64,000 nt of DNA from Azolla caroliniana (lineage: Eukaryota > Plantae > Polypodiophyta): positions 7,750,001 to 7,814,000 of the forward strand of contig JBHGNT010000020.1 in NCBI GenBank assembly GCA_043228905.1, given 5' to 3'. The notes below the pieces were generated by a model, which was given only the letters and a program-made list of their open reading frames with translations, did not search any database and was not told the DNA's origin. Positions 2,198-31,700 of this stretch are shown one piece after another; positions within the stretch are counted from its first letter, which is position 1; the number at the start of each line of letters is the position of its first letter. The translations under genes were made by a program, and so were the position numbers.

Positions 2198-2904
2198 TGT
2201 TACCGATTAGGAACACGGTCTGCGGTCAGTCCTTCGACTTAGACCTCCAAGTGACTGTGGAACAACAAATGGTGGCGTCTATGCGTAATGCGTAGGGGAA
2301 TGTTCCCCCCTAACCTATCAACGTATAAGGGAGACGGCTACAACCGGCTCCTTATCAGTGGTTATACTCACGTTCTTACACGCTCAGGTATTCCAAACAC
2401 ACAGTAGATTAGCCATAGATATACACAGACTTTCAGAGAAGATAGAATTCTATTATGATACGCTTCTTTACATTCCCAAAATACACGCTGCCTCTATCAG
2501 AGGTTTTCTGCCCTTTATATACGCAGGGTCAATTTAGCCGTTCAGGGTGAAAGCATGAGAGTGGAAACAATTAGCTATGTCCTTGACATAGCTAATTAGC
2601 TATGCAAAAGCTACCATTGCTAAATAGTCATTTTAGTAAAAAGCCATCATTAATAAATTAACTATGCAAAAAACCACCATTGAAAATACTAGAGTGTTTT
2701 AATTACATATGTAAATTAGTGCCATAAATGTGCAACATAAACGTGCAACATAAATTGATATGTGCACCATAAATGTGTACCATAAATTATATATTGAATT
2801 CCTAGGTCCATTATGCATGATCCTTTGCCACATCATGTAGGCCATCTCTAGTTGAGTATTGTGGGTTAGTTGCTACCACTGTTGCTAAACCTTATTGAGT
2901 CCAC

Positions 2905-3420
2905 TTGCCGCCACTCTACACTTAGGGGCTGCTACTGTGCATTCCAAGCATCATCAAAGAGCTGTTCAATCTGACGGGGTTCTCTTCTCTGTGCCACTCT
3001 ACACTCAAGGGCCGCTACCGTGCGTTCCAAGCATCATCAAAGAGTTGTTCAATCTTACGGGGTTCTCTTCTCTGTGCCACTCTACTCTCAGGTGCCTTCT
3101 CTGTGTGTTCCAAGCATCGTCGGTAACTGTTCAATCTGACAGGGTTCTCTTCTCTGTGCCACTCTACACTCAGGTGCCTTCTCTGTGTGTTCCAAGCATC
3201 ATCGGTAACTATTCAATCTGACGGGGTTCTCTCCTCCATTGCCATCATTCTACACTCAGTTGCCGCTACTGTCCAGTCCTAGATTGCTTCCACATTTTGA
3301 TTTGACGGAGTTCACTCATCCAACGGCAACATTCTACACTCAGTTGTCGCCATTGGTAGGTCCTGGATCGCCTCCTCAACTGTTCGATCCAACGGAGTGA
3401 ACTCCTCTACTGTTCGGTCT
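2905..3420 (+). repeat. Tandem repeat, ~82-83 bp unit, about 6 diverging copies, upstream of the transposase
   Basis: ctgtgccactctac... recurs at 2989, 3072 and 3154, with degenerate copies on both sides. Confidence 0.85.
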
Positions 3421-3564
3421 TGGATCGCAATAACTTTCTGTCTATTGATTATCTTGTGTATTGTTGTGTCTAATCTTGTGTATTGTGGAATATTTTTGTG
3501 TATTGTTGTTGCCCATAGCCATCTTAAATACTTGTTTTTTTTTCTGGAAATTTAGGGTTTTAAT

Positions 3565-6500
3565 ATGTCCAGCCAAATGGAAGGGGAAGAAGGGTGTTTA
3601 GAATTACCCCTCAATGATCATAAGGATAGGGATGATGCTATCAGGACACAACAAGCCATACGAAACTATTGGGCAGAAAAAAAGAAGGAAACATCGTCAA
3701 TTGTTGAAGGATACGAAAGCCACACTCAGTAAAGGTAAGGATAGTTTAACTGAGAATGTAAGTAATGCGACTACCATCATAGAGAGAAAGGTTGTAGACT
3801 ATTTCAATGTTCAAACCAAGCACATCAGCAATGAAGAAAAGAAGGTAGTACTTTATGGAATATGTAATGATCCATCGATAAAGGACTTAGTTGATTGTGA
3901 TGGTCTTAATGCAAACATATCATCTATTTTAGTAAATAATCTTCGTAATAGTTTCATATCCATGAGCAGGTCAGAAGATGATCTTGTCTTAAAAAGGTCT
4001 AGTCTAATGATGTTACTTAATAGTGATGTTGACGATATAAACATCAATGAGCTATCTAAGGTAATTGGTGTTAGTAGAAAAACAGTGTACAATACAATGA
4101 ACCGTATAATTTCCTCGGGTGAAGGAACTAGTCTACTAAAGCTAACTACAAGATGTAAGCCAATGACACCCATAACATTTGAAATCAAGGATGTAATATA
4201 CATCACAATGTTTTGGACTAATGAGAGTAGGGTTTCACCCAATAAAAAGGATTTATGCAGGAAACATGTTGGAAGAAATCAATACGAGGAGCATCCCATT
4301 CATCTTCTTGATGTACCTCAGGTATTTACATTTATCTCAACATTTGTTTTGACTCTACATGGAAAGTTAATTAGCTCAGTTAGCAGAAAAGCTAATTAGC
4401 TTATCAATTACATTTACCTCAGTTAGCTACTAGGATAACTACTACATAGGTAACTGGCTACTCTCAATAGCTACTACCATGATAGCTAATTAGTTATTCT
4501 CAATAGCTAATTTAGTTACTACCAGATAATTAGCTACCAAAATAACTAACTAGCTACCATGATAGCTAACTAGCTACCAAGACAGCTAATTAGCTACTAG
4601 GATAGCTAATTTCGTTATTACCAGCTAATTAGCTACTAGGAAAGCTAATTACCTACCATGATAGCTAATTAGCTACTAGGACAGCTAATTAGCCACCATG
4701 ATAGCTAATTAGCTACTAGACCAGCTAATTAGCTACCATGATAGCTAATTAGTTACTAGGAAAGCTAATTAGCTACCATGACAGCTAATTAGCTACTAGG
4801 ACAGCTAATTAGCTACCATGATAGCTAATTAGCTACTAGGACAATTAATTAGCTACCATGATAGCTAATTAGCTACTAGAATAGCTAATAAGCTACTAGA
4901 ACAACTAATTAGCTACTAGAACAGCTAATTAGCTACTAGAATAGCTAATTAGCTACTAGGATAGTTAGCTAGCTACTAGGATAGTTAGCTAGTTACGAAA
5001 ATAACTAATTCCCCTTTATTATGCAGGTCGATTTATTTATTAGGTTCAAACGAATGCATCCAAATATCAAAGTTCAACTACGAACATTCGAGTCTCTTAA
5101 GCCACACTTTGTGAGACGCTTAAAGGATCGATACACATGTTGTTGCATTTACCATGTACAGATGGGTTTTCTGAAGGACTCTGTTAATCCACTACATCAC
5201 CATAGCGCATCCCTAACTAATACAGTTTGCACATGTGGGTGCCCAATCTGTCGATCAAGCCCGCAAGAGGAGTGTAAATCATCTGAGCACGTTATCTCTT
5301 CCATGAGTTATTTATTAGATTCAATATTGTGTCCGAGAGAAATTGACGCTATCTTCTATATTCATAAATGTGTCATGGGTTTATGTCAAGATTGTGGCCC
5401 TACTAGATTTAGGTGGTGTCCAAAGGAATTGAGTAGTGAAATATTGATCTCTGTGAAGTTATTTGAGTCAGTGAACACCAATTTCGAAGGAAAGGTGTGT
5501 AAAAGAAAGGATCTAGTTCGGAAGATGCTTAAACCAAGGGATTTGGTGTCTCTGTTTGTAGTATCTCTAGGAAAGTTCATTAAACACAACTTCATTTATT
5601 CATGGCAGGCCCATCAGTTTAAGACTTGCATATCTGATTTCCCAAATGATGTAGTAGTCTCAGTAGTAGATTTCGCAGAGAATTATACTTTCAAGTAGTA
5701 GAATGAAATTCAATCTATGCATTGGTGTTCAGTTCAGGTAACCATTTTTGTGCACATAACATATTTTCGAGTTTCAGATGATGTTAAAAAAAAAATTCAT
5801 TTCTTTATTTCTGATGATAAGAAGCATGATACCGTGTTCGTCCGACACTGTTTTAAGTTACATTGGCAGTGGTTATTAGCTCAACGTTTGGAGCTTACTC
5901 AACATTGGGTCTGGTCTGACGGAGTTGCGTCACAATTCAAGGCTCGACGTCCATTTTATTTTGTGGGGAGGTATCCTGCTATAACAGGTTTGGAGATGAG
6001 ATGGAATTTTTTTGGGTCTGGCCATGGTAAAGGTGAACATGATGGTGCAGGGGCTGTTATAAAGCGGGCAGTTACCCATGAACAACTAAAGACAGATGGT
6101 GTGCACATGAATTGTGCATCACATGTAGTTGAATTTTTAAGAACAAATATGTCAATGAGTGCAACGGGTGTTTATTCCTCGCAAGTCCGAGATATCAAAC
6201 GTGAATTTTGGGAAGTGAAGATAGATGAAGTAAATAGGGAGAAGACCTGGGAGTGCCAAGGAATTCCCGAATTGCGATCTCTGCATGCTGGTCGCGGTTA
6301 TTCAAGGTTGGATGGTCATTGTATTGCGGTTAGAGAATTGACTTGTTTTTGCTTCCATTGTGTGCAGGGAAATTGGAGATATTGTCTAAACAAAGCATAC
6401 ATTCAGAATTGGGAGTATCACACTCTGAATGATAAGGAAGCAGTTGATGGAGAAACAGGGCAGAATGTTGACTTCACATATGAGGGACTTGGAGATACTT

Positions 6501-6859
6501 TGAGTGATGTCCTGAACGTTGGGGATAACTTCGCTGTAAATGCTGAAGAAGGCAATTCAGAGGGTGCTGATTTCTATATATTGAAGTGCACAGTTAGTAA
6601 ATAGTGTGCGAGGCAGAATATTGTAGATGCATGGGGAAATTTTGTATCTGCCGGGACATTCTACATTGAAGGCCTTTTTTATGCAAAACTAGATGACTAC
6701 GAATATGTGTACAGGCTGTTAGAAGACAAACCAACGGCGTACATGTACTCTCATTTGGTCAGGTGCATCAACATCCCAATGTTAGAATACAATAGTTGCT
6801 CAGGTTTATACACTGTTGGTGCTAATGTGTATGAATGTATTTACAATAGTATGCCATAG
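3565..6859 (+). pseudogene. Sola2-type transposase, two exons (3565-4321, 5027-6859)
   Basis: GT..AG intron 4322-5026 joins LLDVPQ|VDLFIRFKRMHPNIK in phase 0; Cys clusters CCCIYH and CVMGLCQDCG; catalytic motifs VDFAENY, QSMHW, WSDGVASQFK, FFGSGHGKGEHDGAG; frameshift in the A-run near 3680; TAG stops at ~5696-5701 and 6602. Confidence 0.85.
4370..5000. repeat. Array of 20-bp units with AGCTAATTAGCT core (alternating -ACCATG / -ACTAGG variants) inside the transposase intron
   Basis: atagctaattagctaccatg and acagctaattagctactagg repeat in register from ~4560 to 4990. Confidence 0.95.
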
Positions 6860-7206
6860 AATTTGTAGCCACAAGTAGCAATTACCATGTTCTCTTGTAA
6901 AACAAACATGTATTTCGCGAAAACAGTTAAATAAATTCGTTTGAGAATCAATTTCTTGTATATAGTCTGCTTTCTGTGCTTCTTTCTCAATAAACATGTC
7001 TTTTTTGTTAAGTTTTAAGTTATAAGTTATAGCGAAATAGTCATCAGTAGCTAATTAGATGTACAAATGTAGCTAATTAGCTGTCAATAGCTAAATAGTC
7101 ATCTCAAATTACAATCTGCAACATATTCCTCAAATTACACAGTAGATAAGTACAGTGGGAACAAGTAATTAAATTCTTCATTGAATAATGTCATCTCTTT
7201 ACATAT

Positions 7207-8200
7207 TTATAAATTACCATTGGAAATGTCTACAAATCTCCTATAAAGAGCTAAGCTCTTGCTAGTCAGTGGAACAAGTCTACATATATTATTCGCATAT
7301 GGAGCTCGGTATGGAGTCCACAACCATGCACCTAGTTGGCAGCTCACTGTTTGCACCAAGTACTGTTCAGGCATTTCCTCGGGTAGAATGAGACAGCATC
7401 TCCGAATATTGAAGTAGTGCCAGAAATGTTCTGTATCCAAAATCAATGTGTTGTCGACATTATATTCAGGCCAGGTAGCCCAAAAATCAAAAAGTCTCTT
7501 GAATCTTGCAGCTTCCATTTGCTCACAATTTTCTCGTGCCCATTGACCTTTAAAACAACTTCGCCATTTTGGGAAGAATCTTGCTAAACACTTCCACACA
7601 TCTGATTTTGGTTTTTCACTCCAAATAAACAAATCAAAGTATTGCACAACCCACTCTAGAAACTGATTCGCGTCCCTCCTTGGCTGCATATATCTCACAC
7701 TCATCAAGACTTTATCAAGCTCCAAGATCAAGGCTCTTCTTTTGACTTCTAGTGGTTTACGTTTCCATTCCTGAAACTGAGCCACTGTTACACCATTTTC
7801 TGGTAGGACATGATCAATCTCAATAAGCTTAGATTCGGCCGACACAACTAGCATCCTTTTCCTCTTCAAACCCCTAGTAGACTGTGTTGGGCCTGGCTTC
7901 ACATTCTAGTGCTCTTGTTTTGTCGACTTAGTTATCAATCCTTGGATTACCTCGGTGCATGTAGTTACTAATCTACTCGATATCAGTCCACTGGTATCAC
8001 ATGTTGCATCTACCTACAACACCAAGTCATCCGTGCAACATGCTTGATCAACTTGTGTGACCAGATCACTTGTGTTAGTTGCTACATCTACTTTCAAGAT
8101 GGGGCCCTTTAAACACGCCGCAACATCAACAATATCCACGCTGGCATTGTCCTTACGAGCAATAGAATCAAACCCTTTAGACTCTCCAATATCAGAAAAC
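7207..8200 (-). pseudogene. FCP1/NIF (HAD-family CTD phosphatase-like) domain ORF carried by the Sola2 element
   Basis: RALILELDKVL...FLEWVVQYFDLFIWS...WARENC...FKRLFDFW...YNVDNTLILD follows the NIF/FCP1-homology motif order; ORFs 7207-7902 and 8014-8262 are in the same frame, separated by two TAG stops; 5' boundary uncertain. Confidence 0.7.
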
Positions 8201-8984
8201 ACCAACATATTCACACTCACAAAGTAACTAACAGTCTCACAAAACAACATCCTGAACATCAAAGAGTTTCAGTCATAGAACAACACTCTTCAAATTATCT
8301 TGGAAAAATATCATAGAGTTCCATTACATAATGTGGATCAAGCAACAACCAATCTGAGGTTTTACTTGTCCAACATGATAGTAAAACTTCATAAAACCCT
8401 AGCAAAATCCCTAAGCTAACAATCATATCCAACTAAACAGTATTTCGCTCCACTACGTCTGGGCCCCTTGACCGAGTAACTGGTCTTGTTCCCGATCGTG
8501 GCCCCTTCTTCAGCCTTTTTCTGGTCGGTTCCCCATTTAGCCTTGCTTCTTTCACCCAATGCGCAAGTGTGTCCTCCTCCAACAACCTTCCCATCGCCTT
8601 AGCAGCTAATTGCACATCAGTCGTTTCTTGAACTAGCTTTTCAAGTATAGAGGGATCTGTTTGGACATTTTCAGTAGTTGGGCTCGGTGGGGTGGAATCA
8701 AGGTCTTGAGATTCGAAGAAATGTTGCATCAAGTGTTCATAAACATTGTTGTTGTGAACCTCAGTTTTACATGTTGTTTCCACTATTTCATGGCATTTCA
8801 CATCATTGCCTAATTCAGTACACTGTTCCAAAAGAATAGGGTGGAGCTGATCTGAAGGAGATGTGATAGCAGGACTCTTACTTTCACCCACGTTGGCAGC
8901 AATATCCTCATCTGTTGCAGCGTCATTAGCACCAAACACATCATGTGCCGTCCTTAATCCACAAGATTCTACAATAGCATGGCA

Positions 8985-10310
8985 GCTATTTAGGATAGCT
9001 AATTAGCTACTTTACTAAAGTATGGTAGAAGCTAGGATAGCTAATTAGGATAGCTAATTAGCTACTTTACTCAACTATGGTAGTAGCTAGGATAGCTAAT
9101 TAGCTACTATGGTAGCTAATTAGCTACTTTACTCAACTATGGTAGTAGCTAGGATAGCTAATTAGCTACTTTACTAACTATGGTAGTAGCTAGGATAGCT
9201 AATTAGCTAATTTACTCAACTATGGTAGTAGCTAGGATAGCTAATTAGCTACTAGGATAGCTAATTAGCTACTTTACTCAACTATGGTAGTAGCTAGGAT
9301 AGCTAATTAGCTACTTTACTAACTATGGTAGTAGCTAGGATAGCTAATTAGCTACTTTACTAACTATGGTAGCTAATTAGCTACTTTACTCAACTATGGT
9401 AGTAGCTAGGATAGCAAATTACCTACTTTACTCGACTATGGTAGTAGCTAGGATAGCTAATTAGCTACTTTACTCAACTATGGTAGTAGCTAGGATAGCT
9501 AATTAGCTACTTTACTCAACTATGGTAGTAGCTAGGATAACTAATTAGCTATTAGGATAGCTAATTAGCTACTTTTCTCAACCATGGTAATAGCTAAGAT
9601 AGCTAATTAGCTACTTTACACAACTATGGCAATAGCTAATTACCTAGTAGGATAGCTAATTAGCTACAATGATAGCTAATTAGCTACTTTCTCAACTATG
9701 TAGTAGCTAGGATAGCTTATTAGCTACTAGGATAGCTAATTAGCTGCCAGTAGCTAATTAGCTACTAGGATAGCTTATTAGCTACTTTACACAACTATGG
9801 CAGTAGCTAATTAGCTACTAGGATAGCTTATTAGCTACTTTACACAACTATGGCAGTAGCTAAGTAGCTAGTAGGATAGCTAATTAACTAGTAGGATAGC
9901 TAATTAGCTAGTAGGATAGCTAATTAGCTAGTAGGATAGCTAATTAGCTTTTTTACACAACTATGGCACTAGCTAATTAGCTAGTACCATAGCTAATTAG
10001 CTAATTAGCTAATAGCTAATTAGCTACTTTATAGAACTATGGTACTAACTAATTAGCTAGTAGCTAACTAGCTGCCAGTAGCTAATTAGCTACTAGTAGG
10101 ATAGCTAATTAGCTAGTAGCTAACTAGCTGCCACTTAGCTAATTAACTACTGTAGTAAACTATGGCAGTAGCTAATTAGCTAATAGGATAGCTATTAGCT
10201 GCTTTAATCAACTATGGTAGTAGCTAATTAGCTACAATGATAGCAGCAAAATAGTTTCCATACTTTTTACAACTTAGCTAATTAGAAAAGACTAAGCTTA
10301 TTAGCTATAG
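8985..10310. repeat. Array of ~42-bp and 20-bp units with TAGCTAATTAGCTA core filling an intron of the accessory gene
   Basis: ggatagctaattagctactttactcaactatggtagtagcta repeated, with shorter variants. Confidence 0.95.
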
Positions 10311-10716
10311 TATGGTATACCTGTTAGTTTTCTCCACTCATTTGGTAGAGTTGTACTGCAATCTCCCAAACAGAATGCAACAATTCGACAGGCATGTTGA
10401 AAACAAAGCAGATGGTATGTGTGGTTGCATGGTTGTAGGTGAACCAACAAAGACACAATTTGGTCCTCCACACCTAACCCACAAGCGATGCAACGTGCTT
10501 GAACTGTCAATAAATCATTTTCTGGTTCTCCTTCATTTGGTAAGGGAGCAAGAATGTTCAGGTCCAAATCCTGTTTGGTCCTTACCATTCCCTCCACAAA
10601 ATGTAGCTGCTTCTTAAGGTAGCTAACTACCTGTTCTTGATAAATGTATTGTTCCTTCAACACAATAGAGAAATTTACCGATTAATTATTCCTGTCTGAC
10701 CCCTCTAATTCAAGCT

Positions 10717-13700
10717 TGTAGAAAGTAGCGTGCGGAAGCAAGTATGAAGACCGAATAGAAGACAGAAAACTCAGGTTTAATGGAGAGCTTGAGCTTACGT
10801 AGTATACTCAGGAGAGATAGAGAGAGAAAGAAGAACTATATTCAACAACAAAAGATCTCGATTCACTACTCTGTACATATGTGTGTTCCATGAACACTTT
10901 TATACAAGTCCTCGAAGGACTGACCGAAGTACTGACCGTACTTCAATGCTCATTAAGAGCTCCTACACTAACTCCCAAATATATTCCTCACGGAATATCT
11001 TTCCTAACGGCCTCCCGGTTTACGCACTCGGCCTAACCGATCGGTCCCAACTGATCCGGTCCTCGGCTTCTTCAGCCGATCCGGCCGATGTTGAGCTTGT
11101 CTCTTAACACTCCCCCTCAAGCTCAACTCGAGGCTCTTTGGAATCCTCGGGCTCACAGCTCCGGTTCCTCCTGGCTTCACGCCTCGCTCGCACTCCTCGA
11201 CCTGTTCGACTCCGCGCGCTTCGACCCTTCCGGTCGGCTTGTCTGCTCATGCGTCCCTTATTAGCTCTTCTGCTGTTGCGGTGTTGACGCTTCTCCTGTT
11301 GCCTATTCTTCCGCTTGGGCCTCGGTTGATTCAGCGTATCTGAATCAAACATCCGAATCGACTCGGCTACCTCTGATCGGTTTTTGCTCCCGTTCGAGTT
11401 TGCTGTCTCCAACTCCTCTTCGGTCTTCTCGCCCTTAGTGGCGTCATCTTCCCCTTGCGTGGTTGGCTTCGGCTCTCTCCTTCAGCTGCTCCCCTTCTGT
11501 CCGCTTTCAGACTTTTCCGCGGGTCCACCCTCGGCTTCTTCAGCCGATCCGAAGTCGAACTCAACAACCGAGTCAACAGCCGAGTCAACCGACTCGGTGT
11601 CGCGGTCTCCGCTCCTTTCCTCCTGCCTTGCTTGGTCGTTCGGGACTATTCTCCCCCTCAAGTTTGGCACGTCGAGGTGACGCAATCCGAGCGCACCTAA
11701 GAATTGCCGCAACTTGTCCAGACCAAGAGGCTTGGTGAAGATGTCGGCAATTTTCCGATCCGTCGGAACGTACTAAACTTCGACTTCACCGGAAAGGACA
11801 CGCTCACGGACGAAATGGTAGTGCACCTCAATGTGCTTAGTCCGTGTGTGGAAAACGGGGTTTTTCGCGAGCTGGATGCTGCTGAGGTTGTCGCAGTAGA
11901 TCGTCGTCGGATCTGACACCTCCTCTTGCAGGTCCTTAAGTAGCCGCTTCAACCATATGGCTTCGCATGTCGTGACAGCCGCTCCTCGGTACTCAGCTTC
12001 GGTGCTTGATAGTGCAACTGTCGGCTGCTTCTTACTGCTCCACCCGATCGCGGCACTCCCGAGGGAGAATGCGTATCCGGATGTGGATCGGTGATCGGCG
12101 GCGTTGCCAGCCCAATCAGCATCGGTGTAGCCGACTAATTGGACGGCTGCACTGGTCTGATATACCAGTCCCCGGTCCTTAGTGCCGTTGACATACCGAA
12201 GTATGCGTTGTGCACATTGAAGGTGCACCTCAGTAGGTCGCGGCATGAACTGACTGATCACTCCGGCCGCATAAATGAGGTCGGGTCGAGTGATGGTCAA
12301 GTATATGGGGCTTCTGACAATTTGTCGGAACCTCATCGGGTCGCATACCTTTCCCGTATCGGGACGAAGCTTGACGGTTCTGTCCAGGGGAGTCAAGACG
12401 GACTTACAGTCGGCCATCCCGAGTTTGAAGAGCATACTCAGCACGTAATGACTTTGGCTGATCAATATGCCTTCGGGGGTACGGATCACATCGATCCCAA
12501 GGAAGTAATAAAGGTCCCCCAGATCCTTCATGTCGAACGATGCCGCAAGCTGGAGCTTCATGCGGTCGATTTCACCTAGGTCGGCGCCGGTGATGACCAA
12601 GTCATCAACATATAGTAAAATACTAACCGGTCCGAGTCGACCTTTTCGGATGAACAGGGAAGAGTCCGATTTTGACGTGACGAAGCCCATCCGACGCAGT
12701 TGTTGCGTGATCTTCGCGTTCCAGGCACGCGGGGCTTGCTTTAGTCCGTAAAGGGACTTCTTCAGTCGGCATACTGCCGAGGAGTTCGTTCCGGAGTGAA
12801 AACCGGGGGGCTGTACCATGTACACCTGTTCCTCAAGGTCACCTCGTAGGAACACATTCTTTACATCCATCTGATGTAAGTGCCACCTCTCGGCCGCATC
12901 TACTGCGAGCAAAACACGGATGGTCGTCATTTTCGCGACCGGCGCAAACGTCTCATCGTAGTCCATGCCGTGTTTCTGCGCGTAGCCCTTTGCCACTAGC
13001 CGAGCCTTGTACTGGTTGACCGAGCCATCGGTGTTGTACTTGACCTTGTACACCCACCTACACCCGATCGGTTTAACCCCTTTTGGTGCGTCAACTAGGT
13101 CCCAGGTCTCGTTCTCCGCCAATGCATGCATCTCTTGCTCCATCACGGCATGCCAATTCGCGTCTTTAGCCGCTTCTACGTAGCTCTCCGGCTCACGCAC
13201 TTTCACTACACGGGTCATGTACGTATAATGATGCGCCATGTACTCGTTGTATCCGAACCTCAAAACAGGATTCTTCTGGCGAGTAGACCGGCATAATCTC
13301 ACATTAGTCGATGTCGAGGCCTTTTCGGTCGACGCGGTCTTCACCTTTAAAGACCCGTCACCGGTTCCCTCGGAGTCTGACTCGCGTTGGTCTGACTCGT
13401 TCTTATCCGTGCCGGAATCCGACACCTTCTTCTTCCCTTTCTGTTTGTGCGTAAGCCGTCTCCTTGGAATGCACGACCGAGTTTCCACTACTCGCCGGCT
13501 CTTCATTGGACTGGTTGTACCGACTCAGTCGTCCAATTGGTCCACTTAAACGGAGTGAAATCGGACTCTCTTCGCGGGTCTCGATTTTGGGCTCATCCGG
13601 AGGCATCTCGGCCTCGCTGACCTCATCGTCAAAGCTTGGATTGGAGTCGGGGTTCGGAGTCGGGGGCTGGTACCAGGACGCAGACTCGTCAAACACAACG

Positions 13701-16400
13701 TCGCGGCTAACACGCGCTTGTTTGGTGCGAGCGTTGTAGCACTTATAACCCTTCTGCTCGTCCGAGTAACCGACCAAGATGCACTTCTCGGCCTTTGCGT
13801 CCAGCTTCCTCCTTTTCTCCTTCGGTAGATGCACATACGCAATGCTACTGAACACCCTCAAGTGTCGCAAGTTCGGCTTTGTTCCGAAATATAGCTTGTG
13901 CGCCGACACTTTGTCTCCGATCCGGTTCTGGATATATACCGCGGTCCTTACTGCCTCGGCCTAGTAGAACTTGGGCAAGCTCTTCTCCTCCAGCATTGCC
14001 CGTGCCGCTTCCACAACTGACCGATTCTTCCTCTCGGCCACACCGTTCTACTCCAGCGTGTATCTACAACTGAATTTGCACCGAATTCCCATTTGTTGTA
14101 GATAACCGTTGAATTGACCCAAAAAGTACTCTTTCCCGCCATCCGACCGCAGGCACTTGATCTTTCGTCCCGTTTCCGTTTCCACGAACCCTTTGAGGTC
14201 ACGAAAACAGTCGAAGACTTCGCTCTTCCTCTCAATGAGGTAGATCCACGTGTGCCGCATGTGGTCGTCGATGAAGGAAACGAAATATCGGCTCCCGCCA
14301 AGACTAACGTTTTGTGCCGGCCCCCATACATCGGAGTGTATAAGGTCGACCTTGTTCCTGCTCCGGTTTCGCTCGTTGGGGAAAGGAAGTCGGTGGTTCT
14401 TCCTAAGCTGGCAGGCTTCACAAATTTGTGCCTTTCGGCCACTAAATTTGGGCAATCTGAACACTACCTGTTTCGATTGTAGATCTTGAAGCCGCTGGTA
14501 GTTGACGTGGCCTATCTGCTTGTGCCACAAGTCGATGTCCGACTCGGATGTTTGTCACTTCGTGAACATTGCGGTGCCGCCATCAGTGGAGTCGAGGATG
14601 AACATCCTCCCGTCTCTGCGCCCTTGCGCAATCACACGACCTTCTTCCTCAATGAAGCACCCGAGGTGTGTAAACCGAACCTCCATCCCTTGGTCGACGA
14701 TCTGTCCGACCGAGACCAAGTTCTTCGTGATTGTCAGAACATGCAACACGTTCATGAGTTTCCCTTTCTGCCCGACATGGCTAAGGGGAACTTCTCCGAC
14801 ATTCGCGATCGGATGCGGAGTGTCGTTTCCAGTTGAGACTACTCCCGGTTGTATCGGTTTTTCAAGGTACGAGAACCACTCCTTATGGCTCGTCATGTGG
14901 TTTGACGTGCCGGAGTCTACGTACCACACCTCGTCCGATCTCGGGGTGGTGCATTTCATTGAGTTTTCTTCGTGTCTCGTCACGAAGGTAGACCCTTCTC
15001 TGGCTCTCCCAGTGTCTTCGGCGTAGTGCGATCGCTGACCATTTCCCTTGTCGGTATGTCCGGAGCCGTTTCTGGAACCGGTTCTCTCCGAATCGGCGTG
15101 CTTCTTCCAGCACTCACTTTCCCTGTGGCCTTTCTTGCCACAGTACCAACACTCCGCGATGGCCTTCCCTTGCCGGTTCTCATCGCTTCGACTCCCCCTG
15201 TTTCCGGAGGGTCTGGAGTTGTTGTCGGCATCACTTCGGTGCCTTTTTCCTTGATCTCGTCGGCCGCTTCCATTGCGTACCAACTCGCCCCGTCCGCCAC
15301 GACCACGGGGCCTTTCTCCCTCCGTGTACAACATCTTGCTGTCGATGTGCGTGCTCGTCGACGCACCCGCGTGGTTCTCCTCTACTAGGAGCATCGACTG
15401 TAAGTCGAAAAAGGACGGCGTATTCTCTCGGGTACACACTGCCGTTCGGAACGCTCCAAACTTCGACGCCAAACCTCCGAGACAGATCTGGACCATCTCG
15501 CTCTCCTCGATGTTCACCTCTATGGAGCCGAGGGAGTCGCAGATATCCTTGATCTTCGAGGTATAGTCCGCCACCGACAGGTCGCATTGTCGTAGGTTGC
15601 TCAACTCCTGTCGGAGCTGAAGCTTCCTGGCTGTGGTGCTCGCGGCGAAAATCTTCTTCAGATTTTCCCACGCACCCTTCGGCGTCTTTGCATCCCGGAC
15701 ATAGCTCAATAGTTGTTCGCCTACACAAAACGCGAAGCGGTATAATACCCTGCTCGCCGATTGCTCCTACGACGGGAAGTCTCTGTGTGTCGATTCGGGT
15801 GCCGCGTCATTAGCTCCTTCGACATAACTGCAGTAGCCGTGCCTGAGCAGGTACTGGTGCATCTTGTAGGACCAAGACGCATAGTTCGTTCTGTCGAGCT
15901 TCTCTGTTGGAAGCGAGCTCGCCATGCCTCTATCCATCGTTCTTCTTGTTCTTCTTCGTCACTGTGTCGGCTGCAAAGAGGTTTTCAACCTTCGCGCTCT
16001 GATACCATGTAGAAAGTAGCGTGCGGAAGCAAGTATGAAGACCTAACAGAAGACAGAAAACTCAGGTTTAATGGAGAGCTTGAGCTTACGCAGTATACTC
16101 GGGAGAGACAGAGAGAGAAAGAAGAACTATATTCAACAACAAAAGATCTCGATTCACTACTCTATACATATGTGTGTTCCATGAACACTTTTATACAAGT
16201 CCTCGAAGGACTGACCGAAGTACTGACCGTACTTCAATGCTCATTGAGAGCTCCTACACTAACTCCCAAATATATTCCTCACGGAATATCTTTCCTAACG
16301 GCCTCCCGGTTTACGCACTCGGCCTAACCGATCAGTCCCAACCGATCCGGTCCTCGGCTTCTTCAACCGATCCGGCCGATGTTGAGCTTGTCTCTCAACA
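10717..16400 (-). mobile_element. Full-length Ty1/copia element B
   Basis: 393-bp LTRs 10717-11109 and 16008-16400 (11 differences counted by eye); TSD aagct (10712-10716, 16401-16405); PBS tggtatcagagc 16007-15996; PPT from 11110. Confidence 0.97.
11104..15937 (-). pseudogene. Copia B gag-pol (Gag, zinc knuckle, PR, INT, RT, RNase H, C-terminal extension)
   Basis: CWYCGKKGHRESEC, WYVDSG, HSDVWGP, RSDGGKEY, YVDDL, YTDADWAG, ADIFTK; several nonsense codons and a frameshift. Confidence 0.95.
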
Positions 16401-17234
16401 AAGCTCTTGTTGCGCAACCTATTCCAGATAATGCTTGATTAGCACATTTTACCCTTAAAGTTATTTATAACACAATCACATACCAACAAAACAATAGTTA
16501 CCTGATTCTTATTTCTAATCGTTCTAACAACGGAAGTAACTTTGCTCTCCATTGCAGAAGCCATTGTGGGTTTCTCTAAATCGGTCTTAAAAATTGCCAA
16601 TGTCTCACAGGCTTCATGGACATTTTTTAGCATATAGCTAACCAATGTCTCACCTATATCATTGACATTGGCTTTCCTTGGGTGTCGGTGTGGTGTATGC
16701 CCCCGGTTTTGCTGGGAGTCGGCAGTTGCATCAACAGCTGCCATGCTCCAAAATCTGTCTATTTTTTGTGCCAAGGTCCCCATCTTTCGACATCTTTTAC
16801 CGATGCCTCACCATAGACTGCCCAAGCTACCCTATACATTTCAGGGTCTCTGGATTCCTTCGTTGTTTTGCAGTACTCATATGCAAATGCTCTAGCAAAT
16901 GAAACTGATAACTCATTGTTGGCTGAGATCTCCTGATGAACTTTCTAGTGCAGCCTCATGCAGTCATCGTACAAGTCGGCTTGTACATGCTTCAGCTTGA
17001 CCTTGCCTTCTACTCTAGGCACTGTATATACTGTCATCCAGTCTACATCACTAATCAATTTATCACTTAGGACAGCAGGGTCAACACCCTCGAGTGACAA
17101 TCCATAGGTGTTGTGGAAGTCCTCCTTTGTCTCGCAAAATTTTGCGAAGTTTAGCACTTTCGGATACGGAGGAACGAGCCATCTTAAATATCATTTCAGA
17201 AATCAGAAATAGTGCAAAATCAGAATATGTCAGA

Positions 17235-17690
17235 ATTAGAAACCCCAATCAACAACAACAGAAATAGTGCAAAATCTTTAACTTAGCAAATCTGAAACCC
17301 TAATCATAATTTGTATTCAGAAATTTGAAATTAAAAAACCCTAATCAAAATCTGTAATCAGAAGTTTGAAATCAGAAACCCTAATCAAAATCTGTAATCA
17401 GAAGTTTGTAACCAGAAACCCTATTAAGAAATTCTAATAAAAAATTTATAATCAAAAACCCTATTTAGAAATTCTAATCAGAAATTCAAATCTGTAATCA
17501 AAATTTGTAACCAAAAACCCTATTCAGAAATTCTAATTAGAAATTTATAATCAAAAACCCTAATAAGAAATTTCAATCAGAAACCCTAATCAGAAATTTC
17601 AATCACAAACCCTAATCAGAAATTCTAATAAGAAATTTATAAACAAAAACCCTAATCGGAAATTTCAATCAGAAACCCCAATCATCACTA
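17235..17690. repeat. Degenerate AAACCCTAAT/AGAAATT repeat (telo-box-like) in an intron of the accessory gene
   Basis: About a dozen aaaccctaat-like motifs interleaved with cagaaatt. Confidence 0.8.
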
Positions 17691-18333
17691 AAGACAAGAT
17701 TAAACACAAAAAAGTAATATAAACACACCTGCTGCTACTCCCTGATCTGGGAGACATCCTTGTATGGGACTCCAAGGACTTCGCCCCATTCGATTTTGGG
17801 GAAATATGAATCGACACCAAAGTTTAGACAATAGTCAAAAAGAAAAAACAAATGTTTGGGGTTTCTATAACTGAAACATACCTGGACGATGATTGAGTAG
17901 GTTCTGTGTTGTAGCTCTCAATCTGCAATGTCGATTTTCTACTGCTGCGGGAGCTATGTCTGCGTTCGTGCTCTGAGTACTCCATCTGCATTCAAAATCA
18001 AACTTAGGCTAAACAGGAAATTGATGACATTGAAGTCGACCTTAGATGATGGTGTTATTCCCCAAGCTCCACTACGTCTGAAACAGAAGTTCAAATATTT
18101 GAGTTTTTTCATAAATTAGTTTTTCAAATATTTGATTTTCCCACAAAAAAGACTAGCTAAACAAATAGCTAATTAGCTATGGCCATTTTAGTAGCTAATT
18201 AGCTAAAATAGTGTTTCCACTCGCATGCTTTTACCCTTCACGCTTCCTACGTGAACCGTTACATGCATTATGATCTTATATTATTTCCTATTCCTACGCT
18301 CTTGTCCGTCGGTTACTATTCCGGCAGACAACA

Positions 18334-25758: not shown

Positions 25759-28700
25759 TATTATAGATCATAGTACTAATGTAAGCTTAAGATAAGGATA
25801 ATAAAAAGATAGATAGAAAGGAGAAAGAGAAAAAAGGGTGCCGATCCACCCGACCACCCCCGAGCGAAGGGATCGAGACGGACTCGAGCCTCGATCGGCG
25901 TCCCATACCACCGCCGTGGCGTCGAGTCGTACCTGGTGCTGGCGCGCTCGCTACAAGAGTTGACCCACCACACGAGCAGAGTCTCGATGTAGTCAAAAGA
26001 TGATCAAATGAGGGTAGCTAGGCCTCTTATTTATAGCGAAACCCAAGGCCCCCAGGCAAGTTCACACTTGACCTAATGGGTTGTCTCAATCCCGAGGATT
26101 AAAAGTAATCCTCCCCTTCTTTACACTCTCCTTTAACCCTCACACTTATCCACGTGTATAGAATACTACGGTAAATTCTTACCACGGGATATTATATGGT
26201 CATGCCCGTAACATACTCCCCCTCTTTAAAACATTGCACTCTTGCAATGGAAAGTTAGGGAAGTTAGTTCTAAGTGTATTTTCGCGTTCCCATGTGGCAT
26301 CTTTTATTGATTTATCCATCCATTTTATTTTGAATTCTCGGATTTCTTTAGTACGTAATTTTTTTGTTTTAACATCGAGAATTCTTTCTGGTACATGTGG
26401 TTTAGAAGATAATTCTTCAGAAGTAACCAGAGTTTCAGTCGTAGCTGTATTGTCGCCAGAACCTAGAAGTTCTTTTAGACGACTCACATGAAAGACTGGA
26501 TGAATTCCGACACCATCGGGAAGAGCGAGACGATAGGCTGATGACCCAATGCGTTTGAGGACTGTAAAAGGTCCACAAAACCGTGGGGCTAACTTAGCGC
26601 ACTTACCCGTAGACAATGTCTTAGAATTGTGAGGTACACGTAAAAATACCTTCTGTCCAGGGTTGAATACACGAGGTTGCCTATGATGATCGGCATAAAA
26701 ACGCGCTCTATCTTGAGCTGTTTTTATATTATCTCGTGCAATATGCAACATATCTTGCATATCCCGAAGAAAGTTTTGCGTACTTCGCAACTCATCATGA
26801 TGTATAGTAACATCAATCGGGGCTCGTGGCTGAAAACCATACATCAACATAAAAGGACTATATCCCGTCGACGTATGCTTGGAGCTGTTATAAGCAAACT
26901 CCAAAATTGGGAGATAACGTTCCCATTTTGTTGGTTTTGCACCAACGTATGCTCGAAGCATGTCCTCAATAATTTGATTTACTCGTTCTGTCTGTCCATC
27001 GGATTGAGGATGATCCGTGGAGCTCATGCTCAACGTAGTTTCTAACTTCTTAAAGACCTGTGTCCAGAAGTCACTAGTAAACTTTGGATCTCGATCACTC
27101 ACGATATCCATCGGTAACCCATAAAAACGAAACAATTCGTCAACGAATTGGTAAGCCAATTCAGGAGCTGTTATCGTGGTTTTAGTAGCAATAAATCTGG
27201 CCATTTTAGTTAGTCGATCAACGACAACCCAGATGGCATCATGACCTTTTTGGGTGCGAGGAAGGCTAACAATAAAATCCATGGATATACTTTCCCACTT
27301 ATTATTGGGAATGTCCAAGGGATGTAAAAGTCCTGCGACTTTAAGTCGCTCGGCTTTGTTAACCTGACACTGGTGACATTTAGTCACATAGCTATGTATG
27401 TCAGGACGCATCTTAGGCCAATAAAATTGAGTGGAGATGAGAACGAGTGTACGATGTATTCCAGGGTGCCCTGCTGAGGGTGCATCATGGCATTCAAAAA
27501 GAATCCTCTTTTTGACCTCGGGTAAATCTGGAACACAAACCTTCCCATTACGGTAGAGCAAACCGTTAGCAATGTGGAAGTATTCCTTCGAGGATGTGGT
27601 GGTGTCTGTTCCAGACTCAACTCTTGCCCAGTATTTTGCGAAATAACTGTCATCAGGATACTTTCCTCGAAGGTGATCATAAAGATCTGATGATATTTCA
27701 GTGAAGCTAAGCGTGTTAACTTCACGGATGCGACTTAGTGCATCAGCGACAGTGTTCATGGAACCTTTACGATATCGTATGGAAAAATCAAAGTCCTGGA
27801 TGAGATCAGCCCATCGTGCCTTACGACCTTTCAGGTCTTGTTGGTCACAAAAATATTTCAAGGACTCGTGGTCCGTAGTTACCACAAAGTGATTTCCATA
27901 AAGATAATGGCGCCATGTTTTGAGCGCATGTATAACTGCAAATAATTCCTTTTCTTGAACGGTATACCGACATTGAGCAGAATCAAGTTTCTTACTCTCG
28001 AATGCTATCGGTTTACCATCTTGATACAAGACAGCACCTATAGCGTAATCGCTGGCATCGGTTTCAACCTCAAAAGGTTTTGAAGGATCGGGTAAAAGAA
28101 GTGAAGGAGCCTTGCAAACCAAGTCCTTGAGTTCCGTAAAGGCAAGGTCTAGTGTAGCATTCCACACAATAGGTTTTGTAGACTTACGCGTTTGACCTTT
28201 TAAAAGATCAGTAAACGGCGTCGTCAATTGGGAGTAATTACGAAGAGACTTTCGCAAAAACCCCACAAAACCAAGGAATGATCGAACTTCTCGAATATTC
28301 CGAAGAGTGGGCCAAAGCTTGATTTTCTCAATGCGAGAAGGATCAATTTCAACTCCTCGTTCGGTTATGAGATGTCCTAGATAAGTAATTGATTTCTTGA
28401 AGAACTCACATTTTGAGATCTTCGCATAAAACTGTTTGTCACGCAATGTTTGTAAAACAAAGCGGACATGTCTAGCATGTTCTTGTAATGTACGGCTATA
28501 AACTAAAATATCATCCAAGAAAATAACGACAAATTTTCCAAGTTGTTCTCGGAAAATGTCATTCATTTCTTGTTGAAAAGTAGCCGGAGCATTGGTCAAA
28601 CCAAAAGGCATAACCAAAAACTCGTAATGGCCATAGCGCGTACGAAATGCCGTTTTAGGAACATCGTCCTCACTTATTCGTATTTGATGGTAGCCAGTAC

Positions 28701-31700
28701 GGAGATCAAGTTTCGTAAAATACCGAGCTCCCTGGAGACGGTCAATTAGATCGTCAGCCCGGGGCAATGGATACGAATTCTTGATCGTCACTTTATTCAA
28801 GCGTCGGTAATTAATACACATACGCCATGTGCCCTCTTTCTTTTTAACCAAGAGAACTGGTGCACCCCATGGAGATTTACTATAACGTATATAACCCATT
28901 CGTAAATAGTCCTTGAGTTGCTTAGATACCTCATCTTCTTCGGATCGACTTAAGCGATACGGAGGTATACTTATTGGTGCAACACCAGGTACAATATCTA
29001 TACGATGGTCTATATTACGTTTAGGAGGTAACCCATCAGGTAGTTCACTTGGAAAAACATCATGAAAATCATTTAAGATTTCATCAAGTTGTTGTTGTTC
29101 AAAATATGTTAATTGAATCGGGACATTATCGATATTGTAAACGTGAATGTCCGGATCAAGTACACAATAAAATAACGTAGAACAAGACAACTCGGATATT
29201 GATGGACACGAGGAAACAATCGAGAGGGATTGTTTTTTTACACATTGAATAAAATGCGTACAATCGTTCAGTACAAAAGAAATGGAATGACGAACCCAAT
29301 CAATAAATAAAGAAGAGTTTTTATTATAAAACCAGGGATAACCCAGTATTACATCGGTGGTACAAAGATTCATTACATGGAAGTCTACTTCCTCTATATA
29401 AGTATCAATAGAAATTCCTAATGAATGAATCGCCCCGTTGATGTATTGTACTCTTCCATCAGCCAAGTGCACCGTGTAGGTGTGATCACTTACGGTGGGT
29501 TGGATTCCCCATATCTGAACCAAACGATCATTCACAAAATTGTGTGAGCTTCCCGAATCAAATAAAAATTGTACGGGAGATCCATTGATATACCCGTTTG
29601 CACGTAGTAAATCATTGGGACCCAATACATAGTGAGGGAAAGAACATTGACAATTACTTAAATGATGTGTATAGACCTGAAGGACATTAGGAATCTGACC
29701 TTTATGGTCTGCAGCTTTAGCTTTGTTGTCGTGCTCTTTCCGTTGGAGCTTTCGACATTGATCTTTTGTATGACTCTTCTTTTTGCAGAATACACAAAAA
29801 GGATGTTGTCGCTTACAATCGCGATCCAGGAATTCGTTGGGTGTCTTGCGTTTCCCAACAAATTGCGACTGCTTAGTCCCGGGCGCTTCGTTGGGTTTGT
29901 TATGGTCCTTCTTCGAAGTGCGTTGATAGCGAAGAACTATTTCAACGGCCTCTTCGAAGGATTTTGGATCCTTATCGTGCACTATCCAGTGATAGTCCGA
30001 ATTGGGGATGCCATTGACAAAACAAGCTATCAACCAATTGTCCCCTTCTAGACCCGATTTTTGGATTTGGGTTCTAGCATGGTGAACATAGTCTTCTAGC
30101 GAGGAAAATTTCCTGCTAGAGAGGTTCATTAAAGCTTGTGCTGCCTCGGTTCGAGAGGGAGGTTGCAGAAATTGGCCCTTAAAAACCGTGACAAAATCTG
30201 TCCAGGTATCGGGCAATTTCCCCATAGTACGGAGGCCACGCCACCAGGCGGCGGCCTTACCCCCGAGTTCTCGGCCGACATATGCAATCTTCGTACTATC
30301 TGGCGTGGGATAGAGCTCAAAATGAGACTCCCATCGTCCCAGCCATGTGCAGATTGCTTCTTCGGTTCTTTCCTTTTTGTCTCCCGTAAATGGCTTAACG
30401 ACAAATGATGGTTCACCTTGTCGCTCATCAGGTCTATTAGTCTCACGTTGTAGGCTAATGACACGTGCCTCAAGAGCACTCTGAGATTGCCGAAGTTCGG
30501 TCATCTGTTGAGCGGTGAAACTAAGGAATTGGGTTATTTGTGCCAAATACATCTCAGTGGACATTTGTCCAGGAGGATTCCCTTGAGTTCCTTCCGCTTG
30601 AGCGGATGACATCGGGTCGTTAATTTGAGCCATTAAAGATTATTTCTGGAAAAGAAATAGGATAAGGTCAGAGATATAGTCATAACATCTTGTCGTGATG
30701 TAAACATATCATGGGCGAGCATTAATCGATATCATTATCTCACGTCAATACCCCTCTAGACGTATGAGATGAGGTTCAAGATCAGGTTACTATGGTAACA
30801 CAAAGGTGTTTTAAAAACCATGGGGGTGACAAATAAATGTCTTTCCCTGATCTCTATATCGATTTTTTCATGGTGGCTCCCCGAGGCTCAACCATGTATG
30901 TTCACGTCATGAATAGTTTATACACGAAAAAAAATGTTAACAATAAACTATGTTTCGGTGCCCACATAAGTGGTTTCGGCTCTTTAAGTCCGATTACGAG
31001 GACCCCGAGGTGCACTTAGACCTTAAGTCTAAACATGTGTTATAGTCATATGTATCAAGGATGTTGTATGGTCTTGGTCATATTTGAACTCGAGACCTCG
31101 AGAACAAATACATTAAACACTTGAGCCAACCAAGTAAGTTGCTCTTCTCGAATGCTTAATGTTTGATGCGTATAAGAGATATGCGAGGCAATTGATCATA
31201 TACGTTTTTTTAAAAGAACATATATGTCAAGGGTCCTTATTTCGCCCTCATTTACCAACACTATGTTGGTACGTTACCTAACCTCAAGTCTCGTAATTAC
31301 GATGGCATATGTCAAAGGGCAACCTAATGGGTTGTCTCAATCCCGAGGATTAAAAGTAATCCTCCCCTTCTTTACACTCTCCTTTAACCCTCACACTTAT
31401 CCACGTGTATAGAACGAGCTCATGGTGGCATCGTATCCATGTAACGAGGGAAGGATGTTGGATACGTGCGTCATTGGAGCGACCTCACTTGAAGTGGGTC
31501 AAGCCCTACGTACTCAACATCATTTTGGCTATTGGCGTTTCTTTACGTAACGAAATCGAGGTCGTCAACGGGGTTATCAACAATAAAAAAATGTTGAAAA
31601 AGGGATGGTGACAACGCCATTCTCACAAAAATGTGAGGACGGCCACCAACATCCTTTTCCCGATCATGACAACTTTCGATATAATCACATAATAACGAAT

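Follow-up and report, generated by a model that had tools for sequence, protein, structure and literature searches.

Why should a fern DNA transposon carry a second gene and dozens of copies of its own palindrome? The question is raised by a 64,000-nucleotide stretch of the Azolla caroliniana genome (assembly GCA_043228905.1, contig JBHGNT010000020.1, forward-strand positions 7,750,001 to 7,814,000; hereafter the window), in which positions 2545-18236 are one decayed copy of a young Sola2 transposon family with a nested Copia retrotransposon. An earlier note on this DNA proposed that accessory proteins act on element-specific motif arrays. Our standing result is a moss and fern Sola2 lineage that has family-specific palindrome arrays and in which a second gene, here called the cargo gene, fits no known domain family and is inherited together with the transposase. 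We regard the anatomy and the selection acting on it as solid, and a regulatory mechanism, argued by analogy with known systems, as plausible.

The element is bounded by 25-bp terminal inverted repeats (TIRs), identical at 23/25 positions, with the target site duplication (TSD) TTCA on both sides, and measures 10.0 kb without the nested Copia, so the 10-kb TIR- and TSD-bounded unit of the earlier note was correctly delimited. Its parts, in window coordinates, are the following (A-D are subfamilies of the element, described below).

2541-2544: left TSD, 4 bp; the same 4 bases stand at 18237-18240
2545-2569, plus strand: left TIR, 25 bp, starting GGGTG; 23/25 positions as in the right TIR
2589-2602: subterminal palindrome copy, by motif matching
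2910-3272: palindrome-free 83-bp tandem repeat 5' of the transposase, present in 17/20 other copies; its copy number differs among element copies
3565-4321, plus strand: transposase exon 1, with a helix-turn-helix (HTH); 1-bp insertion near 3684 in the window copy
4483-4984: palindrome array of 20/40-bp period, within the transposase intron 4322-5026 (GT..AG)
5027-6868, plus strand: transposase exon 2, with the Sola2 DDD core; Asp codons at 5669, 5918 and 6041
7070-7083: palindrome copy between the two convergent 3' ends, by motif matching
7207-8183, minus strand: last exon of the cargo gene, with a linker, a basic nuclear-localisation-like patch and a NIF/FCP1-like domain, from the sequence and a Pfam match
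8433-8968, minus strand: acidic exon of the cargo gene with a basic patch and its own stop, a probable alternative last exon; acceptor conserved in A-D and matching the RING donor in phase
8996-10234: main palindrome array, within the predicted cargo intron 8969-10320
10321-10654, minus strand: RING-H2-like exon of the cargo gene; eight Cys/His ligands kept in A-D, the last pair being C-x3-C
10717-16400, minus strand: nested Copia long terminal repeat (LTR) retrotransposon, 5.7 kb; 393-bp LTRs 97.2% identical, 5-bp TSD AAGCT
16502-17182, minus strand: main exon of the cargo gene, with an undescribed domain of ~145 aa and a coiled coil; both flanking introns spliced in a ~95% identical relative
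17183-17728, minus strand: first coding intron of the cargo gene, with a 13-bp degenerate repeat and 10 copies of the telo-box (AAACCCTA)
17729-17757, minus strand: probable first coding exon of the cargo gene, with its ATG at 17755-17757; splice join seen in the relative's contigs
18166-18205: two subterminal palindrome copies, starting at 18166 and 18192, by motif matching
18212-18236, minus strand: right TIR, 23/25 positions as in the left TIR
18237-18240: right TSD, matching the left one

The window copy is dead and broken in both genes. Besides the frameshift in exon 1, four premature TAG stops interrupt transposase exon 2, which is an open frame of 619 codons in many other copies. The last cargo exon has two premature stops, the main cargo exon has one stop and a 1-bp deletion, and the Copia interrupts a 48-codon coiled-coil cargo exon that is also partly deleted. 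All seven premature stops (5696-5701, 6602, 6857, 7906, 8014 and 16945) are TAG, as would be expected from C-to-T decay of methylated DNA.

The earlier assignment to Sola2, with a spliced DDD transposase, holds. The motifs DFAENY, SDG and HGKG..DG agree by eye with the Sola2 alignment in file S10 of PMC3627910 (DF[AS]ENY, QxE[IV]QSxHW, SDG..Q[FY]K, HGK..DG.G and CxC), and the 4-bp TSD has the length given for Sola2 in PMC3627910. The three Asp residues of the catalytic core are invariant in 41 transposase homologs, the HTH of exon 1 is matched with E 6e-05, and homologs occur in Ceratodon, Calypogeia, Adiantum, conifers, molluscs and a sea cucumber. Short Sola2 TIRs reportedly begin with GRG, as described by Bao et al. 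in 2009. The termini of the window element are GGG, the same start as in the moss Sola entries of Table S2 in PMC12973397. Four active clusters of plant Sola appear in that table, with lengths of 9.9-11.2 kb and 4-bp TSDs; three come from mosses, the fourth from a fern. One of the table's Ceratodon TIRs equals ours over the first 11 bases, and its entries for these clusters name only transposase domains. In our literature search, whose scope lay outside Repbase and subscription journals, neither an accessory gene nor a motif array of a plant Sola element turned up. The earlier statement that Sola elements are essentially transposase-only is contradicted by published Sola2 elements carrying Fanzor1 (PMC3627910), and thus Sola2 cargo as such was already known; the Fanzor1 cargo, from slime-mould Sola2, is unrelated to the gene described here.

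The element belongs to a young and recently active family of several hundred copies. In the 523-Mb genome, transposase exon 2 gave 679 first-look candidates, which are not copy numbers, and all 40 that were scored were at least 98% identical; the cargo exon gave 598 candidates in the same sense, of which 150 were scored. Exact TIR ends number 600 genome-wide (control 0), and the closest pairs of copies are 99.7-99.8% identical over 5.2 kb. We fetched 20 other copies, 10 chosen by the transposase and 10 by the cargo gene. The NIF, RING and acidic exons were present in 20/20, the exon encoding the N-terminal domain of the cargo protein (N-domain) and transposase exon 2 each in 19/20, and the copies chosen via the cargo gene had a transposase within range in 9/10 cases; six of the 20 were intact in all seven checked exons. 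Capture of the gene by a single copy is rejected, because the cargo exons recur across genomic copies. The TSD was an exact 4-mer in 10/13 two-ended copies (window copy included), had one mismatch in two and was ambiguous in one. No short non-autonomous derivative or miniature inverted-repeat transposable element (MITE) was found among 32 paired ends from the first 100 of the 600, which span 5.0-24.6 kb. The older subfamilies B, C and D have the same layout and NIF exons 82-86% identical to that of A, and the transposases of A-D are 85-90% identical. Genome searches with distant homologs returned, among the best-scored candidates, only members of this family.

We next to these genes find the palindrome, a 14-bp motif with 60 matches in the window at one mismatch or fewer (0.03 expected), all of them within the element: two arrays (4483-4984 and 8996-10234) and single copies at 2589, 7070, 18166 and 18192. 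In an intact copy, 0/113 palindromes fall in 5.5 kb of exons, so dozens of palindromes nearly absent from exons, as had been noted, are indeed what the element contains. Their reported positions need some revision. About 95% lie in introns, 2-8 kb from the ends. Those next to the TIRs are real, with only 1-2 full copies on each side, 20-45 bp inside a TIR that is itself motif-free. As for palindromes between the genes, the single copy at 7070 stands, and the largest array, 8996-10234, falls instead between conserved cargo splice sites. Exact adjacent palindrome pairs number 3931 genome-wide (control 0). The first nine array clusters listed, unselected, all lay in element copies, and 57,443 bp of flank held 0 palindromes; a generic satellite outside the element, which the earlier note had named as grounds for refutation, is rejected.

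The core of the palindrome is identical in A-D, and spacers and unit lengths differ: A has mainly 20, B 19/33, and C and D 19-33. Neighbouring array units differ ~2.5x less in the core than in the spacers, a ratio that is partly ascertainment. The core amounts to 1.75 copies of a self-reverse-complementary 8-mer, which forms runs at 9990-10129; the number of palindromes ranges from 26 to 127 among subfamily A copies, and the folding of both arrays far exceeds that of shuffled sequence (z -18 and -16). Judged from its sequence, the motif behaves like a protein-binding site, being confined to non-coding DNA, two-fold symmetric, kept amid spacer turnover and specific to the family.

The second gene had been described as two, a RING-H2 gene and an FCP1/NIF open reading frame (ORF). 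Both ORFs exist, most likely as parts of one convergent multi-exon gene, and two separate accessory genes are not our preferred model; an in-frame ATG does precede the NIF exon. In intact copies the minus strand carries, in order, a short first coding exon, a 227-codon exon, the 48-codon exon, and the RING, acidic and NIF exons. The start ATG is present in the examined copies of subfamilies A-D and altered in two B copies. The RING donor is conserved in A-D and in phase with the acidic and NIF acceptors, both also conserved, and in subfamily B a stop directly follows the acidic exon; the simplest reading would be that the RING exon is joined to the acidic or the NIF exon as alternative last exons. 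Splicing could be followed in contigs from three runs, guessed to be RNA, of one study of the ~95% identical relative, in a comparison covering array-free stretches only; no run catalogued as RNA contained the stretch. The 78-nt GT-AG intron after the 227-codon exon is skipped in 3/4 runs compared, and in 2 of the 3 intron-skipping runs the loose end of the contig matches the upstream exon; the first two coding introns are spliced. An Adiantum nelumboides protein of 752 aa (P0061, a gene prediction) contains N-domain, coiled coil, RING-like finger and NIF in one chain, and P0123, also a gene prediction, matches both the RING-like finger and NIF.

Compared with the C3H2C3 pattern of RING-H2 E3 ligases, the RING-like exon has all eight ligands but departs in its last pair, C-x3-C. 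Against Pfam zf-RING_2 this exon scores E 0.066 and a homolog 8e-4, neither of which reaches the cut-off, whereas the NIF match (PF03031, E 6e-07) lies above it. The catalytic alteration of NIF reported earlier is confirmed, as Glu replaces the first motif Asp (7708-7722). The DxDxT motif reads ELDKV in subfamilies A-C, and therefore the nucleophile is lost; it reads DLNG in relatives and in the fern protein. The domain shares its Pfam family with the FCP1/SCP phosphatases, whose catalytic DxDxT/V the cargo protein lacks, and activity on the C-terminal domain of RNA polymerase II is unlikely for this family. The acidic exon ends, at 8433-8560, in the word D-x-[PT]-L-x-x-[WF], followed by a basic patch. 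Word and patch recur in distant relatives (L091:4283-4588; L094:4148-4729; P0100), and the exon as a whole is near-neutral.

The N-domain (16502-17182), which the earlier note did not name, is the best-conserved part of the cargo protein. A phmmer search of 1.84 billion representatives returned 139 homologs, and the core spans residues 12-146; a word-based search among longer proteins found none, and the named homologs that we looked up are hypothetical Adiantum proteins. In Pfam, 0 of 64 aligned members matched a family over the core. The core is modelled with pLDDT 93.9 and pTM 0.88, and the best fold comparison among 48,161 PDB chains reached Z 2.5, with no Foldseek match at E<=0.001. The longer model had no match in a viral structure library either, neither version gave a usable match in the ESM Atlas, and PDB sequence searches returned coiled coils only. 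Five basic residues are conserved (K60, R67, K80, R97 and K140). Of the VANC proteins of VANDAL transposons, the VANC21 chain 9lnj scored Foldseek E 7.1 against the longer model, fell below Z 2 when re-aligned and was absent from the lists for the core, and the cargo protein has no DUF1985, DUF287 or PMD match. These missing matches point, at the level of models and profiles, towards non-homology of N-domain and VANC but do not prove it. The N-domain family extends far beyond the phmmer set (L100:6857-7903, L165, L144, L151 and L168), its members sharing 15-39% identity, and a separate Pfam entry for it is probably warranted.

Selection was measured as dN/dS (nonsynonymous over synonymous rate) by an NG86 count on subfamily majority bases. 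The N-domain exon gives 0.13-0.21 in all five subfamily pairs and transposase exon 2 0.15-0.26; purifying selection on the N-domain is as strong as that on the transposase. The 48-codon exon gives 0.14-0.27, RING 0.23-0.27 among A, B and C (0.49 and 1.0 with D), NIF 0.25-0.37, and the acidic and linker parts 0.4-2.0. As a neutral control we used singleton (private) mutations, 26% synonymous overall, with p values given without multiple-test correction. In the N-domain, synonymous changes make up 52-57% of the fixed differences and 27% of the private mutations (p<=2.5e-4 in 3/3 pairs). The expressed relative shows pN/pS 0.31 over the 30 listed differences of 33. A first control, using all copy-versus-majority differences (NIF 0.34), was dropped because it was inflated by shared sub-lineage changes, and a relative of the NIF exon, 3 of whose 38 listed differences are stop codons, was left out of the case for selection. 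A neutrally evolving cargo is rejected by dN/dS and the singleton comparison. The accessory ORFs thus recur beyond this copy, in all copies examined, and the doubt about neutrality raised earlier is settled for the N-domain and less clearly for RING and NIF.

Is this arrangement peculiar to one fern? We fetched 80 metagenome loci with related transposases and examined 39 for palindromes. At least eight other families have a palindrome of their own, in line with the element-specific arrays of the earlier note: L091, L092 (imperfect), L094, L095, L096, L097, the L110/112/113/158 group and the L154-156 group. These palindromes are 10-16 bp long, occur in more than one place and lie mostly in the transposase intron or just 3' of the gene. 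In L091, L092, L094 and L095 the palindrome is in the intron before exon 2, at the same intron position as ours in L092, and L094 and L095 also carry a convergent NIF exon. In many relatives the same intron holds non-palindromic tandem repeats. The L092 copy is adjoined by a remnant, read by eye, resembling a long interspersed element endonuclease/reverse transcriptase (L092:1-1790).

N-domain homologs lie convergent to the transposase and 3-8 kb downstream of it in 7/15 distinct loci (from 19 loci whose downstream DNA spans 4 kb or more, after merging of four near-duplicate pairs). The L100 ORF matches the N-domain profile of our own family with E 3e-4, and a profile-profile comparison gives a probability of 97.5% (E 6e-12); the best reversed-sequence control reached E 1.3. 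The final profile was trained on its own matches, and its E-values are therefore circular. Identities of N-domain and transposase correlate (Spearman 0.74, exact Mantel p 0.0006, n=7 elements), three pairs group alike in both trees, and the N-domain homologs diverge faster than the transposases. For the N-domain homolog P0016 and the transposase homolog P0172 alike, the longest contig listed has 8136 bases, which hints that the two are linked in another organism.

How might such an element work? We tentatively propose, well short of an even chance, a Sola2 element in which the N-domain of the second conserved gene would bind the element's own palindrome arrays and keep its copies transcribed or mobile. 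The palindrome binder itself is probably encoded by the element, to judge from the sequences. Of its two proteins, the cargo protein is a slightly better candidate than the transposase, because the sites are mostly internal, like those of VANC21 (PMC5735166), and because the gene is kept with the transposase while diverging faster; any DNA-reading role more likely falls to the N-domain than to RING or NIF. A coiled-coil dimer of the cargo protein would bind the two-fold symmetric palindrome, the RING-like finger and catalytically dead NIF would serve as recruiting modules for ubiquitin machinery and phospho-protein docking, and the protein, with an evolutionary origin separate from theirs, would relieve silencing of the element's own copies much as VANC or Spm TnpA does. 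That the outcome is anti-silencing we infer from these analogies. The whole chain, an old and independent moss/fern Sola2 self-recognition in which an unmatched domain reads a family-specific palindrome and brings RING and a pseudo-phosphatase to escape silencing, is rather doubtful as a single package.

A close precedent is VANDAL of Arabidopsis, in which accessory VANC evolves faster than the transposase VANA, a short motif is tandem-amplified in introns, intergenic and terminal DNA and differs between related families, and VANC21 binds introns and intergenic DNA of VANDAL21 (PMC5735166). The window family likewise has a faster accessory gene and a tandem-amplified, non-coding, family-specific motif, the bulk of which is internal rather than terminal, like the VANC21 sites. 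Unlike the Mutator-like VANDAL, it belongs to another superfamily, its motif is a palindrome and not a same-orientation 9-mer, and RING and NIF are attached. Its motif is also constant over A-D, whereas VANDAL families change theirs rapidly. In Spm/CACTA, the second protein encoded by the element, TnpA, binds motifs of its own and switches on cognate copies (bioRxiv 2026.08.24.746577); TnpA, however, has tandem HTH domains derived from the transposase and acts at the termini, in contrast to an N-domain with no HTH match and mostly internal motifs.

Several observations weigh against the cargo protein as reader of the palindrome. The N-domain resembles no known DNA-binding fold in the searches above, and its net charge is only about +2. 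The motif stayed unchanged while the N-domain diverged 20-30% among A-D. Eight of the 15 distinct loci have no N-domain match, and the six distant N-domain- or RING-bearing contexts with sufficient DNA (L100, L101, L106, L144, L151 and L168), together with L165, have tandem repeats with no palindrome common to two or more arrays. Relatives with clear palindromes are on contigs whose length does not allow the N-domain exon to be seen. Because of these two circumstances, motif and N-domain are seen together only in the genome of the window element. Since the TIRs of the metagenome relatives were not found, linkage of N-domain and transposase there rests on orientation and distance. RING and NIF are absent from many relatives. 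Against singletons, NIF is significant in 1/3 pairs (p 2.6e-3, 0.06 and 0.10) and RING in 0/3 (p 0.09-0.27), and the acidic and linker parts are indistinguishable from neutral (acidic exon 0/1 pairs). Lastly, the relative's contigs leave the element sequence 43 nt into the next exon, with no RING or NIF join seen.

The transposase is a close rival as binder, because in AtMu1 the transposase suffices for hypomethylation of its own termini (bioRxiv 2026.08.24.746577). The HTH of the Sola2 transposase would then bind the palindrome, the arrays would be amplified internal and subterminal transposase sites serving to load the enzyme or to activate the element, and the cargo would be a non-DNA-binding partner like MURB, whose interaction with MURA is published. 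We consider this somewhat unlikely. The HTH itself, the motif copies just inside both TIRs, the constancy of the motif across A-D, whose transposases are 85-90% identical, and the distant N-domain elements without a palindrome pattern all fit it, but the TIR is motif-free and the great majority of copies are intronic and far from the ends. Families in which the ends and transposase sites are enough commonly have MITEs, and no short derivative was found among the paired ends. It is improbable, to a greater degree, that the arrays are neutral slippage products of an easily expanding self-complementary 8-bp unit and that the cargo is selected for an unrelated role. The make-up of the core with its 8-mer runs, the variable palindrome number in A and the non-palindromic repeats in the same intron of many relatives would be natural on this account; however, one core recurs not only in arrays apart from each other but also in the gap between the genes and next to both TIRs, it is kept in A-D despite replaced spacers and varies less than they do between units (with the ascertainment noted), and other families independently have their own palindromes in more than one place.

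Two further explanations place the arrays in host hands or in RNA. As enhancers for a host transcription factor, they would switch the element on in particular cells, which we judge quite improbable. Palindromic sites suit dimeric host factors, and the TAATTA core of the palindrome presumably resembles homeodomain sites. The telo-box, too, is a known host motif (bioRxiv 2024.09.27.615353), and of the 16 in the window 13 lie within the element. The palindrome, however, differs per family, so a different host factor would be needed each time, and the paired motif is absent from the 57 kb of flank examined. Array introns acting as RNA, through long hairpins that give small RNAs or affect splicing of both genes, would account for the strong folding and for the 20-bp period of subfamily A, near small-RNA size; yet strong folding is a trivial consequence of palindromes, the periods vary between subfamilies, and single subterminal copies cannot form such hairpins. 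This we think very improbable.

Ten of the element's telo-boxes (AAACCCTA) are in the first cargo intron and the others at 3553, 4228 and 8394; locus L165 has a repeated word similar to the telo-box repeat. The Copia family of the nested insertion occurs twice within 10 kb, at 1-1375 and at 10717-16400 inside the Sola2 copy. At 26200-30639 the minus strand has an open 1479-codon Ty3/Gypsy polyprotein with a chromodomain. The right flank of the Sola2 copy is a Gypsy RNase H region, and the remaining window is mostly decayed LTR retrotransposons.

The window family has reached several hundred copies of 10-12 kb, whereas in a survey of 1007 plant genomes Sola and Ginger together account for 9 of 3203 active clusters (PMC12973397). 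Naturally intact copies and many protein-motif pairs make the pairing of cargo protein and palindrome directly testable in a model moss. If it is true, sequence-specific anti-silencing would have arisen again outside Mutator, CACTA and the flowering plants, with a new DNA-binding fold, and the Sola2 lineage would offer a third solution beside VANC and TnpA, together with a natural panel of protein-motif pairs.

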